IMG/VR virus record: IMGVR_UViG_648276647_000019
Coordinates: 1-45,585 of that record
Length of the DNA stretch: 45,585 nucleotides
Source of the DNA: a virus
Lineage: Duplodnaviria; Heunggongvirae; Uroviricota; Caudoviricetes
Strand: one strand, 5' to 3'
Under the pieces are notes generated by a model. That model was given only the letters and a program-made list of their open reading frames with translations. It was not told the DNA's origin and searched no databases. Of this stretch, positions 5,077 to 8,717 are shown one piece after another. The translations under genes and the position numbers were made by a program. Every line of letters starts with the position of its first letter. Within the stretch, counting starts at the first letter, position 1.

Positions 5077-5640
5077 ATGAGGCTAATCGTGGGTAAGCAT
5101 CACTGGAAAATAGAAAAACAGCCTGAGTGGTACGTGAAAGCTGTCAGAAAAACTATCGCGGCGTTGCCGGGTGGTTACGCTGAAGCGGCTGACTGGCTCG
5201 ATGTAACAGAAAACGCTTTATTCAACCGCCTTCGTGCAGATGGCGATCAGATTTTCCCGCTGGGATGGGCAATGGTTTTGCAGCGTGCTGGTGGCACTCA
5301 CTTCATTGCTGATGCTGTGGCGCAGTCTGCAAATGGCGTCTTTGTGTCTCTTCCTGACGTCGAGGATGTGGACAATGCCGATATCAACCAACGCCTGCTG
5401 GAGGTCATTGAACAGATCGGCAGTTATTCAAAACAGATTCGTTCAGCAATTGAAGACAGTGTAGTGGAACCGCATGAGAAGACAGCAATTAACGATGAGC
5501 TGTACCTCTCAATTTCGAAGCTGCAGGAGCATGCAGCACTGGTCTACAAAATCTTTTGCGCTCCAGAAAAGAGTGACGCCCGCGAGTGTGCAGCTCCGGG
5601 CGTCGTGGCGTTTTGTGTCTGTGGAGAAACTAACGCATGA
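5077..5640 (+). CDS. YdaT-like / CII-analogous regulatory protein (187 aa)
   Basis: Position immediately after cro as in Rac ydaS-ydaT; family assignment is by position and general resemblance only. Confidence 0.45.
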   Translation: MRLIVGKHHWKIEKQPEWYVKAVRKTIAALPGGYAEAADWLDVTENALFNRLRADGDQIFPLGWAMVLQRAGGTHFIADAVAQSANGVFVSLPDVEDVDNADINQRLLEVIEQIGSYSKQIRSAIEDSVVEPHEKTAINDELYLSISKLQEHAALVYKIFCAPEKSDARECAAPGVVAFCVCGETNA

Positions 5641-7421
5641 ACAGTTTAACGGCAAATAACCGTTTGTCGCAACAGCTGGTGGTCAGCGTCGCTGAACACC
5701 TGTTGTTACGGCATGAATGCAGATTACCAAATCACCTGGCTGTAAGTAACCACAGAGAACTTTACCTGACTGTGGGGGGCGAGTTGTGCAGGAACTTAAC
5801 CGCTGGTTTCGTGACGGAAGAGGGCTTTATGTTCATGTTATTCGTTGGGAACCAGAAACACAGCGCGTTATCTATCTTCGCAAAGACTACCCGCATGAGT
5901 GCTTTAGTCCTTTGTGGAAATTCAGGCGTGATTTTGTTGAGTGTGAAGGACCACCCGCACATTGATTCTGCCATTCCGGGACGTTACACTGTTCAGGCAC
6001 CTTATAAAGCGGGTGCCGGGCGTGAGAACCCGGAATTCACCAAAGCGCACAACCGCGCTCTTGCGGTTTTTTTGTGTCATGAGCAGCATTACGCCCAAAT
6101 TATGGTGGGGCGTGCAGGGCCAACTTCGGTTGGGCCGGGTTCTTTGGTGACCGGTTTCTCACCCCTGTACGTCTCACCACCTATTGCCGTGAGAAGCCTT
6201 GGTGGTGAGTTATTAAAAATCACCAAAGAGGCTGCCATCATGGCTACGATCCCAACCCTCACTCAACCTGACATCACGATTATCAACGGTCGTGTTGTCA
6301 CCACATCTCTTGCAGTTGCTAACTACTTTACTAAACGACATGAGCGAGTTTTAGATAGAATTCGAAACCTAGAATGCTCCGCTGAATTTACTGAACACAA
6401 TTTTGTGTTAAGTGAATACACTGACGCATCAGGCCGCAAACTACCTTGCTATCAAATAACCCGCGACGGCTTTGCGTTTCTTGCTATGGGTTTCACGGGT
6501 AAACGTGCTGCCCAGTTCAAAGAGGCATACATCAATGCCTTTAACCAGATGGAGAAACGCTGCATTACGGCGTTATCCCTTTTTGACTATCTCCGCTTGT
6601 TGCGCCTTGCTGGTGTTCCGGGTTATATTTCTCGCGTTGCTGTAAATCCAGCAACCGGGTTTAGCAGCCCGGAACACATCACAGCGCACAACCGCGCCTG
6701 CGGTTTTTTTGTGTGCAATGCCCGGTCACATCTGAATTATGGTGGCCTGGGTAGGGGAGCCGAAAGGCTCGCCGGGTTCTGTGATGACCGGTCTGCTAAC
6801 CCTGCTCAGGTCACCACCAGTTGTTTAGCAGCAGCTTGTGGTGATAAGTCAAAACTCATCACAGGGGCTGTCGTTATGACTACCATCCCAACCCTCGCTC
6901 AACCTGAACTTTGTGTTATTGATGGCAAAGTCGTTACTTCTTCGCTGGCTGTTGCCGATTATTTCCATAAACCCCACAAAGACGTACTGGCAAAAATTTC
7001 TCGTCTGGATTGTTCAGTTGAATTTACCGAGCGAAATTTCTCGCTCAGCAAATACATCGATGTAACTGGTCGTAAGTTACCGTGCTATCACATCACTAAA
7101 AACGGCTTCGCGTTCCTGGCTATGAGTTTTACTGGCAAGCGAGCGGCTCGTTTTAAAGAGGCGTACATAAACGCCTTTGACCAGATGGAGAAACAGCTTT
7201 CAACTCCATCGGTGCTGAGCGATGTAGCACATAATGCCAGCGTTCTTTATTCCTACATTTCATCCATTCATCAGGTCTGGTTACAGCAGCTTTATCCCAT
7301 GCTGGAAAAAGCTGAATCACCGCTGGCTGTAAGTCTGTATGACCGAATTAACGATGCGGCATTTCTTGCCCGTCTTATCCATTCGTCACTGAACCCTTCA
7401 GAGGTAAGGGGGCGCAAATGA
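5637..7421 (+). CDS. Rha-family phage regulatory/antirepressor protein, continuous ORF containing two Rha domains (internal candidate starts at 6240 and 6876)
   Basis: ATG at 5637 overlaps the upstream stop (ATGA) with a GGAGAAA RBS; two Rha-like domains (TIPTLTQP...FKEAYINAFxQMEK) lie in one frame with no stop until 7421. Whether this is one protein or several is unresolved. Confidence 0.5.
   Translation: MNSLTANNRLSQQLVVSVAEHLLLRHECRLPNHLAVSNHRELYLTVGGELCRNLTAGFVTEEGFMFMLFVGNQKHSALSIFAKTTRMSALVLCGNSGVILLSVKDHPHIDSAIPGRYTVQAPYKAGAGRENPEFTKAHNRALAVFLCHEQHYAQIMVGRAGPTSVGPGSLVTGFSPLYVSPPIAVRSLGGELLKITKEAAIMATIPTLTQPDITIINGRVVTTSLAVANYFTKRHERVLDRIRNLECSAEFTEHNFVLSEYTDASGRKLPCYQITRDGFAFLAMGFTGKRAAQFKEAYINAFNQMEKRCITALSLFDYLRLLRLAGVPGYISRVAVNPATGFSSPEHITAHNRACGFFVCNARSHLNYGGLGRGAERLAGFCDDRSANPAQVTTSCLAAACGDKSKLITGAVVMTTIPTLAQPELCVIDGKVVTSSLAVADYFHKPHKDVLAKISRLDCSVEFTERNFSLSKYIDVTGRKLPCYHITKNGFAFLAMSFTGKRAARFKEAYINAFDQMEKQLSTPSVLSDVAHNASVLYSYISSIHQVWLQQLYPMLEKAESPLAVSLYDRINDAAFLARLIHSSLNPSEVRGRK
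5966..6239 (+). repeat. Structured repeat unit 1 preceding rha copy 1
   Basis: Contains terminator-like AACCGC-loop-GCGGUUUUUUU (about 6046-6072), hairpin ACGCCC/GGGCGU, cUUCGg tetraloop hairpin (6116-6140), CCGGGTTC, and UCACCACC/GGUGGUGA helix. Confidence 0.6.
6600..6875 (+). repeat. Structured repeat unit 2 preceding rha copy 2
   Basis: Same element order as unit 1; terminator-like hairpin about 6682-6708; GNRA (GAAA) tetraloop hairpin GGAGCC/GGCUC in place of the UUCG hairpin; second helix kept via a G-U pair. Confidence 0.6.
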
Positions 7422-7612
7422 ATCGTTACGAAATCGTTCTTACTACAACGGAATATTTTAACGATAAACCTGTTAGAGCAGAGTCAGTACTGTACTGGCG
7501 TCGTTATAAATCCCGTAAGGCAGCGGAGCATAAGGCCGCCAGGATGTGCGAAACCATCGCCATGAAAGGTAGTCCGGTTAAATATGTTACTACGGCGGAG
7601 GTGCGCCCATGA
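7418..7612 (+). CDS. Hypothetical small protein (64 aa)
   Basis: ATG overlaps upstream stop (ATGA); GAGG-type RBS upstream. Confidence 0.5.
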   Translation: MNRYEIVLTTTEYFNDKPVRAESVLYWRRYKSRKAAEHKAARMCETIAMKGSPVKYVTTAEVRP

Positions 7613-7833
7613 TCCGTCGCATCGTTTATTTCCTGTACCACAAATACAACCGTATCCCTCGTCCCGGGCAGTGGTACACCACGCCCGCAGGACATGTTCT
7701 ACGCGTCAGCCTGGTGGACCGTGAATGTCAGAAGGTGATTTGTGAACCGCTGGGCCGTAATTACCGCGTCAGTATGCCGCTTATAGCCTTTCGCTCCGGA
7801 AAAAACATGAAGCATCTCGGAGGTGCAGCATGA
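7609..7833 (+). CDS. Hypothetical small protein (74 aa)
   Basis: ATG overlaps upstream stop (ATGA); GGAGGTG RBS. Confidence 0.5.
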   Translation: MIRRIVYFLYHKYNRIPRPGQWYTTPAGHVLRVSLVDRECQKVICEPLGRNYRVSMPLIAFRSGKNMKHLGGAA

Positions 7834-8717
7834 GTATGGAGCTGATGGTTAAGATGATCATGAGCAAACCAGTAATGATTGATTCTGATAATTCTGGGCG
7901 TTATATTGTTCTGGCAGCGGCAAAATCCGTTGCCGGGATTGGCGTCCTGAAATTGATTACTGAGCATAACCGCGCTCATGCGGTTTTTTCGTGTCATGAG
8001 CATTGCTACGCCCAAATTATGGTGGGGCGTACAGGGCCGACTTCGGTCGGGCCGGGTTCGGTAGTCTCCGGTAACGCCAACCCTGTACGTCTCACCACCT
8101 CTGTGATTGGCGTCCCATGTGGTGAGTTTTCTGAAAAACTGACTACCGGGGCTGTCACCATGACTACTCTCCCAACCCTCACTCAACCTGAAATTGCCAT
8201 CGTTGATGGTCAGGCTGTTACATCTTCTTTGGCTGTTGCTGACTTCTTCTCTAAACGTCATGACGATGTACTGAAAAAGATCCGCATTTTGGATTGTTCT
8301 CCAGAGTTTTGTGCCCGCAATTTTGCGGAGACATCAATTTTGGTACACCAGCCCAACGGCGGTACTCGCAAACTTCCTTGCTACCACATCACCCGCGACG
8401 GCTTCGCGTTCCTGGCAATGGGCTTCACTGGCAAACGTGCAACCCAGTTCAAGGAGGCATACATCAATGCCTTTAACCAGATGGAAAAGGCGCTGATCGG
8501 AAAGGTTGATAATTCATGTGTCGCGCACAATGCCCATGTTGTTTACCTCTACATGGCTGAAATTCACCGCGTCTGGTTAGAACAACTTTATCCGATGCTG
8601 GTTTCAGCTCAGTCGCCGCTGGCTTCATCACTCTACGACTACATCAACGATGGTGTATTCGTTGCCGGGCTGGTGGACTCGGAACTGAACGAAAAGCATA
8701 AGGAGGTGCGTAAGTGA
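7830..8717 (+). CDS. Rha-family phage regulatory/antirepressor protein (295 aa; Rha domain from internal Met at 8160)
   Basis: Strong RBS GGAGGTG before ATG 7830, overlapping the upstream stop; Rha-like core plus a C-terminal domain shared with copy 2. Confidence 0.7.
   Translation: MSMELMVKMIMSKPVMIDSDNSGRYIVLAAAKSVAGIGVLKLITEHNRAHAVFSCHEHCYAQIMVGRTGPTSVGPGSVVSGNANPVRLTTSVIGVPCGEFSEKLTTGAVTMTTLPTLTQPEIAIVDGQAVTSSLAVADFFSKRHDDVLKKIRILDCSPEFCARNFAETSILVHQPNGGTRKLPCYHITRDGFAFLAMGFTGKRATQFKEAYINAFNQMEKALIGKVDNSCVAHNAHVVYLYMAEIHRVWLEQLYPMLVSAQSPLASSLYDYINDGVFVAGLVDSELNEKHKEVRK
7880..8159 (+). repeat. Structured repeat unit 3 (near-identical to unit 1)
   Basis: Terminator-like hairpin about 7966-7992; the UUCG hairpin carries a compensatory pair change relative to unit 1 (CAAC/GUUG to CGAC/GUCG). 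Confidence 0.6.

Follow-up and report, generated by a model that had tools for sequence, protein, structure and literature searches.

The region from 5637 to 8717 of the analysed DNA (the whole of IMG/VR virus record IMGVR_UViG_648276647_000019, 45,585 nucleotides (nt), called the window here) holds three tandem RNA immunity modules of the immI/P4 type. They are located in the early rightward operon of an e14/mEp460-like lambdoid prophage, between a cII-like gene on the 5′ side and a replication gene on the 3′ side. In each unit a promoter of its own is followed by the small RNA (sRNA) gene isrK with its terminator, the antisense RNA gene c4, the b2 and a2 target sites and a Rha-family gene, whose product is a putative antirepressor judging from its sequence. 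The units are crossed by long open reading frames (ORFs), and the crossing frame is under selection against stops and frameshifts while its peptide is neutral. The original prediction, made from the letters of the window, had described a paradox, in which structured elements stay open in frame yet conserved nucleotides are read in different frames in different copies. The observation is real, but it is not unexplained, as the same situation is published for eta/kil of P4 and for orf45 of Gifsy-1. Our reading, to which we give a probability of about 0.6, is that the RNA immunity modules lie inside a coupled, stop-free and peptide-neutral frame through which ribosomes would pass as in P4 eta/kil.

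Two such frames are found.

5637..7421, plus strand: stop-free 'bridge' frame of 594 codons, eta-like (ORF list and frame-0 stop count).
7830..8717, plus strand: second bridge frame, 295 codons, over promoter 3, isrK-3 and c4-3 and in frame into Rha-3 (Pfam: Ash at amino acids (aa) 25-121, pRha at aa 131-220).

The 594-codon frame exists as predicted and is free of stops through two Rha domains and two structured elements; in order it spans the DUF4222 gene, promoter 1, isrK-1, c4-1, the Rha-1 N-domain, promoter 2, isrK-2, c4-2 and Rha-2. Its start was said to be coupled to the upstream stop, and ATG 5637 indeed forms an ATGA over the TGA of the CP76/cII-like gene (junction ACGCATGA). Unit 3 is likewise in frame with the strongly preceded ATG 7830, which has GGAGG before it and forms an ATGA over the stop of a 74-aa ORF, and the replication gene begins with a GTG that overlaps the stop of this second frame (GTGA). 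Both ATG 5637 and ATG 7830 lie upstream of the module promoter hexamers. Consecutive gene junctions at 5637, 7418, 7609, 7830, 8714 and 9652 are all 4-nt start-stop overlaps (6/6, ATGA or GTGA), and therefore no untranslated gap exists in the early operon from the cII-like gene onwards. Frame 0 is in phase with the Rha start codons, which are corrected here to 6240, 6876 and 8160. A second correction concerns positions 5786-5965 of the 594-codon frame, which overlap a real DUF4222 gene in another frame. All three units are free of stops in frame 0 of the window, with 3-9 stops per unit in the remaining two frames. A first-order Markov model puts the chance that a frame stays stop-free at about 0.05, 0.05 and 0.012 for units 1-3 and 0.010 for 5637-5936, each for its segment alone, before demanding that the segments be in frame together.

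In every unit Rfam recognises an isrK sRNA and, after it, a C4 antisense RNA, with full-length C4 matches (gathering scores: isrK RF01394 50 bits, C4 RF01695 45 bits, c4-a1b1 RF03163 46.7 bits). The elements and the Rha genes are as follows.

5962..5990, plus strand: candidate promoter 1, TTGATT-17-TACACT, read from the sequence; a homologue of promoter 3 (repeat family D2) that puts +1 close to where isrK-1 starts.
5997..6073, plus strand: isrK-1 (seqA-like), RF01394 63.6 bits; b1 6022-6028, a1 6037-6045, terminator stem 6051-6068 with T-run.
6098..6184, plus strand: c4-1, RF01695 83.4 bits; a′ loop 6141-6150, b′ 6156-6162; AUG 6102 in frame with Rha-1.
6185..6239, plus strand: spacer 1, in which b2 GTGAGAA (6189-6195) and a2 TCACCAAAGA (6220-6229) exactly complement the loops of c4-1; a2 overlaps the Shine-Dalgarno sequence of Rha-1.
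6240..6560, plus strand: Rha-1, intact pRha N-terminal domain (Pfam PF09669), C-terminal domain replaced by unit 2, no stop codon.
6600..6629, plus strand: weak candidate promoter 2, TTGCGC-18-TATATT, read from the sequence, in a block conserved in A34 and L117 (relatives described below).
6636..6710, plus strand: isrK-2, 75 nt, RF01394 70.8 bits; b1 6661-6667, a1 6677-6684, terminator 6690-6705.
6735..6821, plus strand: c4-2, RF01695 85.2 bits; a′ loop 6779-6787, b′ 6793-6799; AUG 6739 out of frame with Rha-2.
6739..6828, plus strand: 29-codon ORF from the c4-2 AUG, closed by TAG 6826 inside b2 TTAGCAG (6825-6831).
6876..7421, plus strand: Rha-2, full length, 181 aa (PF09669); a2 target TCATCACAG at 6856-6864 abuts the Shine-Dalgarno sequence.
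7879..7907, plus strand: promoter 3, TTGATT-17-TATATT, from a promoter scan (9/12 matches), +1 near the isrK-3 start.
7914..7990, plus strand: isrK-3, RF01394 68.6 bits; b1 7939-7945, a1 7955-7962, terminator stem 7968-7985.
8015..8102, plus strand: c4-3, RF01695 82.3 bits; a′ loop 8059-8066, b′ 8074-8080; AUG 8019 in frame with Rha-3.
8160..8717, plus strand: Rha-3, full length, 185 aa (PF09669); b2 8107-8113, a2 GACTACCG 8141-8148 at the Shine-Dalgarno sequence.

The intrinsic terminator at the end of each isrK was also found independently by a terminator scan, and the c4-a1b1 family RF03163 matches in unit 2 only (6623-6675, 53.2 bits). PF09669 scores 202.9 bits in two stretches of the 594-aa ORF and 93.8 bits in the 295-aa ORF, at a cut-off of 29.9 bits.

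The three c4 RNAs are predicted to have three specificities, with each loop matching the targets of its own unit only. The a2 target and the shared b1 and b2 target are TCACCAAAGA and GTGAGAA in unit 1, TCATCACAG and TTAGCAG in unit 2, and GACTACCG and TTGGCGT in unit 3. In all three units the own targets are exact complements of the a′ loop over 8-10 nt and of the b′ region over 7 nt, with two G-U wobbles in the pairing of a1 of isrK-3, and no complement of at least 7 nt is found between the c4 of one unit and the targets of another. The a2 site abuts or overlaps the Rha Shine-Dalgarno sequence in every unit. Whole-region RNAduplex energies are not cleanly diagonal for the isrK targets because the GC-rich stems pair promiscuously; exact loop complements were used instead.

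Module 2 of A34 (L124 3465-3830) is 89% identical to unit 2 of the window (6540-6900) and differs from it by coordinated changes in all three copies of each element. The b1/b′/b2 set is TTTAGCAG in the window and TTTGACAG in A34, and the a1/a′/a2 set is CATCACAG in the window and CA(T/C)CAACG in A34. Such a pattern looks like a switch of specificity captured among close relatives. In both modules b2 places a stop (TAG or TGA) in the frame of the c4 AUG.

The translations bear out that conserved nucleotides are read in different frames. The block AATTATGGTGG is read as Q-I-M-V-G in units 1 and 3 and as L-N-Y-G-G in unit 2, whose terminator stem-loop is shorter by 2 nt (AACCGCGCCTGCGGTT vs AACCGCGCTCTTGCGGTT), while the block CCCTGTACGTCTCACCACC is read as P-L-Y-V-S-P-P in unit 1 and as N-P-V-R-L-T-T in unit 3. 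Compensating length differences between units 1 and 3 had been described as 1-nt changes. The compensation stands, but it consists of 1 additional nt in the b′ region of c4 and 2 additional nt in the spacer (63+75 vs 64+77). In unit 2 the frame of the c4 AUG is closed at TAG 6826, so that the bridge frame alone crosses the unit; further on, TGA 6877 of the c4-AUG frame overlaps the Rha-2 ATG (ATGA 6876-6879), as in Gifsy-1.

For a family-wide view, c4 loci were gathered from viral contigs by the c4 core RNA motif alone, ignoring ORFs. An AUG at the 5′ end of c4 is near-universal among the collected loci, and its frame continues into the downstream gene in 48/80 unique loci. The c4 AUG and the Rha ATG are a multiple of 3 nt apart in 39 of 41 Rha-type sequences. 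Insertions and deletions (indels) in c4 are offset in the spacer, with c4 plus spacer lengths of 63+75, 64+77, 65+73 and 65+76. Over the stretch that begins 156 nt before the c4 AUG and ends at the Rha ATG, no stop occurs in the Rha frame of any of the 40 unique modules (38 of them with the c4 AUG in frame), and the same modules have 33 polymorphic stop positions in frame 1 and 27 in frame 2. The c4 AUG is out of frame in two exceptions, unit 2 of the window and L115, and the Rha frame is open throughout in both.

The openness extends beyond c4. When all gene types are considered, the frame is open from the isrK start through c4 and the spacer in 72/87 unique c4 loci, and in every Rha-type module the openness reaches back 50 nt or more beyond the isrK start. 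In 45/68 bridging loci, which represent 19 distinct contexts and include P4-like satellites, the stop of an upstream co-oriented ORF is overlapped by an ATG or GTG in this frame. In Salmonella L128 (GCA_020644555.1; 3339-4002) and in L124 (A34; 2466-3108) the plus-strand long frame is even stop-free across unrelated two-gene inserts on the minus strand, one a toxin-antitoxin-like pair and the other a DUF6516 gene with a hypothetical gene. Other plus-strand frames over these inserts contain 5-9 stops per gene in 3/4 genes and the long frame contains 0; the open frames that cross them have 821 and ~640 codons.

The frame was further examined by the ratio of nonsynonymous to synonymous substitution rates (dN/dS), computed frame by frame over 231 pairs, as the original prediction had proposed. 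In the Rha domain the long frame has a dN/dS of 0.40 and the off-frames have 1.17 and 1.04. In c4 plus spacer the long frame (0.85) is like the off-frames (0.81 and 0.83), as it is in isrK (0.71; off-frames 0.78 and 0.79). In the c4 stems, compensatory changes are observed at 14/26 pairs among 48 sequences, with the three window units included. The off-frame-like dN/dS, the covariation of stems and the absence of stops in the Rha frame mean that selection maintains the RNA structure and a frame without stops, and not the amino acids. The proposed conservation at nucleotide level and not at peptide level, with persisting frames, is thus true both in the window and across the family.

Comparison of the window with Salmonella L128, which has the same composite of units 1 and 2 at 637-nt spacing, gives dN/dS values of 0.13 for the Rha-1 N-domain and 0.10 for Rha-2, and of 0.99 for the junction plus isrK-2 and 1.9 for c4-2 plus spacer. 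As predicted, Rha-1 lacks the C-terminal domain and has no stop before unit 2, with its pRha domain intact. The strong purifying selection on this domain (0.13) indicates that it is expressed and is not a dead remnant, and Rha-1 as a pseudogene remnant is ruled out by the same value.

The paradox has a published resolution in P4 and in Gifsy-1, so the window does not represent a new kind of system. By analogy, it fits the architecture of P4 eta/kil feature by feature. Rfam isrK and C4 both match P4. Inspection of the P4 sequence reveals a long ORF that begins upstream of the internal constitutive promoter with an ATGA (2858) over the stop of ORF88, and this frame runs through seqA/isrK and CI/c4 into kil, a nested gene in the same frame that starts at the a2/seqC target. 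In PMC10111431, which cites Forti et al. 1999, this ORF (eta) is described as translatable only from the upstream late promoter and coupled to the upstream gene; its translation is reported to prevent termination, and the reported function is the translation of the long ORF, not its peptide. The window differs from P4 in several respects. Its host is a lambdoid prophage, in which the upstream promoter would be the early rightward one, whereas P4 uses the late promoter PLL; its nested gene is a Rha-family putative antirepressor instead of kil; and it has three modules with three specificities, two of them chained in one frame.

Gifsy-1 resembles the window in having an isrK, there with terminator read-through, a c4-like RNA, there processed (STnc1160), and a conserved AUG (Hershko-Shalev et al. 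2016, PMC4825925). Its orf45 starts at the c4 AUG, is translated and is required for expression of anrP; its nucleotides are conserved and its amino acids are not, and an orf45-anrP fusion occurs in Shigella dysenteriae (PMC4825925). In contrast to the window, orf45 is a separate ORF of 45 codons in another frame that ends in an AUGA over the anrP start, and the Gifsy-1 sequence has the anrP frame closed inside c4 and no frame crossing isrK. A separate leader ORF of this type is found in none of the window units: in units 1 and 3 the equivalent of orf45 continues in frame into Rha and reaches back beyond the promoter, and in unit 2 the AUGA is present, but the ORF is cut to 29 codons by the TAG in b2.

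In immI of P1/P7 (Citron and Schuster 1990), as in the window, c4 lies between upstream a1/b1 and downstream a2/b2 sites (NC_005856 feature table), the a′/b′ loops hold the specificity, with loop differences leading to heteroimmunity, and the ribosome-binding site overlapped by the target belongs to the first gene in an antirepressor operon. P1 differs in that its c4 AUG opens a frame of only 14 codons and the region has no crossing frame, in that c4 controls icd, which is coupled to ant, instead of a Rha gene directly, and in having a single module without an upstream co-oriented gene. The expectation that no frame runs through isrK where no upstream gene exists is only loosely supported: P1 fits, having no frame through c4, and P4, which is open through isrK and c4, seemed to contradict it but has the upstream late promoter and the eta ORF. 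What is new here is the array that stacks three specificities, the joining of units 1 and 2 in a single frame, the quantitative demonstration of a peptide-neutral bridge frame in lambdoid prophages, and the reinterpretation of the Ash annotation given below.

On the P4-like reading, the promoter of origin would decide the fate of a transcript. Transcripts from a module promoter have no upstream start codon and would stay untranslated until the c4 region; being untranslated that far, they would terminate at isrK or be processed to c4. Processed c4 would block Rha translation at the ribosome-binding site, which would be the state of the lysogen. Transcripts from the upstream early promoter would be translated continuously by ribosomes handed over from the preceding gene, and the transiting ribosome would prevent formation of the terminator hairpin, loading of Rho and pairing of c4. 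The downstream replication genes could then be expressed despite the embedded switches. Because units 1 and 2 share a frame, ribosomes from Rha-1 (6240) would enter unit 2. If the unit-2 terminator were suppressed, a 393-aa Rha1N-linker-Rha2 product would be made and c4-2 would be overridden; if termination won, ribosomes would be stranded on a non-stop message. The original prediction had left Rha-1 as either a two-domain fusion or a non-stop message, and the P4 precedent suggests a third option, in which the translating ribosome suppresses the unit-2 terminator and read-through would be dominant.

A competing explanation, which we hold to be unlikely as the whole account, is that the short leader ORF alone matters, as in Gifsy-1. 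Translation would start at the c4 AUG on module-promoter transcripts and reach the Rha start by coupling or by in-frame fusion, and the openness further upstream would be incidental. It draws strength from the near-universal c4 AUG, from its phase with Rha in 39/41 with compensated indels, and from the demonstration in Gifsy-1 that orf45 is translated and needed for translation of anrP (PMC4825925). It does not explain why the Rha frame is still open where the c4 AUG is in another frame or soon meets a stop (unit 2 of the window, L115 and module 2 of A34), nor the open frame upstream of isrK in every Rha-type module, the frequent start of this frame in an ATGA over the stop of the preceding gene, or its passage across the inserted opposite-strand genes. 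The leader-ORF and the bridge-frame mechanisms may also operate together.

Several points weigh against ribosome transit through the bridge frame. The anti-termination role is carried over from the P4 precedent. The sampled c4 loci are mostly from enterobacterial prophages and are phylogenetically related, so the counts are not independent trials. A bridging frame is missing in 13/81 c4 loci with enough upstream sequence, as it is in P1 and Gifsy-1. A co-oriented ORF still ends 100-450 nt upstream in 12 of these 13, and bridging is therefore common, not obligatory, for modules that follow another gene. Promoters 1 and 2 are weak by consensus, and only the unit-3 promoter passed the scan threshold. 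Finally, over the upstream part of the 594-codon frame (5637-5965) the 13 relatives are too alike (95.6-99.7% identity) to give codon-position and stop-polymorphism tests (5637-5950) any power, and the sole signal favours the DUF4222 frame, since the variable sites fall mainly at its third codon position (7/10).

A second alternative holds that the long ORFs code for working Rha proteins whose N-terminal part is a true Ash protein domain (PF10554), in a coding sequence that the RNA motifs merely overlap. PF10554 indeed matches the isrK and c4 segments of both window ORFs, at aa 117-211 of the 594-aa ORF (5985-6269) and at aa 25-121 of the 295-aa ORF (7902-8192), with E = 2.6e-15 and 7.8e-14 for the hits. 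The Prokaryotic Genome Annotation Pipeline (PGAP) propagates names such as 'ash family protein', GenBank likewise carries them beside Rha proteins of 297-383 aa, and a preprint on Shiga toxin (Stx) phages lists Ash as a protein domain of unknown function; 'Rha/Ash' proteins of the Stx 'Eru' phages are among the closest annotated counterparts. However, positions 1-41 of the hidden Markov model (HMM) map to isrK and positions 44-107 to c4 plus spacer. Unit 2 matches only the isrK half, because its c4 half is read in another frame, and in A34 too identical nucleotides are read in other frames. In P4, the RefSeq coding sequence of a 137-aa 'cI gene product / transcriptional repressor' over the CI RNA (locus L123, 8168-8584, minus strand), a discredited protein, matches the same model at positions 44-107 (E = 4e-16). 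Purifying selection specific to the frame is not seen on the Ash segment, where the values of 0.71-0.85 equal those of the off-frames and the unit-2 segments reach 0.99-1.9 against Salmonella, in contrast to 0.10-0.13 for the Rha domains. The off-frame-like dN/dS, the half-match of unit 2 and the L128 values speak against a folded Ash domain, and we regard this alternative as very unlikely. The Ash 'domain' behaves as the translation of two RNA genes. A widespread, uncharacterised annotation, together with oversized Rha-family proteins in thousands of E. coli and Salmonella prophages, Stx phages included, would thus be explained as the footprint of two RNA genes in a transit frame. It also calls for caution in gene finding and in protein-family curation, as translatability can be selected without selection on the product.

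Least probable of all is that the open frames are a matter of chance or annotation, with only the short Rha genes (6240, 6876, 8160) translated and Rha-1 a decaying recombination remnant: a single unit segment is stop-free by chance in 1-5%, units 1 and 3 are homologous and long frames sometimes occur opposite or alternative to real genes, but 0 of 60 polymorphic stop positions fall in the Rha frame, indels are compensated, start-stop overlaps recur in independent contexts, the frame is open across two unrelated opposite-strand inserts, the Rha-1 N-domain is at 0.13 between the E. coli and Salmonella composites, and the two-module ORF occurs on hundreds of contigs.

The array itself is rare. 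Relatives have a single module at this position, and among 5,426 complete E. coli genomes and 50,697 phage records no record covers at least 80% of 5600-8800. The exact 594-aa product is on record in one contig only, GCA_000176555.2. Two-module relatives with ORFs of 491-822 aa occur in Salmonella and E. coli and align over 82-100% of the 594-aa query; they are carried by 46 (P0003) and 279 (P0010) contigs, and two pRha stretches are present in 4/4 checked representatives. L117 and E. coli A34 have two modules ~360 nt apart in one open frame, and the units present in L118 are 1 and 3.

The left end of the unit-2-type module (6574-6640, with its equivalents in L117 and L124) translates as (S)LF(D/E)YL(K/R)LLRLAGVPGYISRVAVNPATG. 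The upstream Rha gene to which the module is joined is cut short, keeping ~107 aa in the window and ~24 aa in both L117 and A34. The differing points of truncation in these three elements therefore suggest repeated recombination of a unit-2-type module into Rha genes, always in frame.

A tentative generalization, somewhat less probable than the P4-like reading of the window itself, is that bridge frames are a general device of enterobacterial temperate phages and satellites. The early transcript would be protected against Rho, terminators and the antisense immunity RNAs of the phage itself, transcripts from internal promoters would stay fully subject to those RNAs, and arrays would chain modules. 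If so, a bridge would take over ribosomes from the preceding gene by start-stop overlap and carry them across promoters, sRNA genes, terminators, genes in other frames and opposite-strand cassettes. In tandem arrays a derepressed upstream specificity would override the downstream ones, and a phage could hold several heteroimmunity specificities at once. Already on the P4-like reading of the window, the eta/kil principle extends to lambdoid early operons, with the promoter of origin deciding exposure to RNA immunity via coupled translation. Stacked specificities would bear on heteroimmunity, on prophage cross-induction and possibly on induction of Stx phages.

The surrounding genes (S24 repressor, cII/CP76-like, DUF4222 and replication-initiator-like) mark the region as the early rightward operon of an e14/mEp460-like prophage.

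4080-4754, minus strand: S24 repressor (Pfam).
5077..5640, plus strand: cII/CP76-family (ymfL-like) early gene (Pfam PF06892, E = 5.8e-13; ORF list), TGA stop 5638-5640.
5786..5965, plus strand: DUF4222 gene, window frame 2 (Pfam PF13973, E = 9.5e-14), PGAP-annotated in relatives.
7418..7833, plus strand: two small ORFs, 64 and 74 aa, with 4-nt ATGA overlaps with their neighbours at 7418, 7609 and 7830.
8714..9655, plus strand: replication-initiator-like gene, HTH_36 (Pfam PF13730); the mEp460 counterpart is annotated as a replication protein.

At 5786-5965 the DUF4222 frame is the truly protein-coding one. No Pfam match is found for the 64-aa and 74-aa ORFs at 7418..7833. The gene at 8714 is the next link 3′ of the array in the coupled gene chain. 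Within it, at 9002-9124, a 15-nt unit (TCAAAATCTGACCCG-like) occurs six times at a spacing of 15 nt, which resembles the origin iterons embedded in lambda O-type genes. In one related viral contig, L045, a DicF sRNA (3740-3791, minus strand; Rfam 76.7 bits) precedes an isrK-c4 module of the same strand by ~235 nt, with isrK at 3429-3505 and C4 at 3317-3404.

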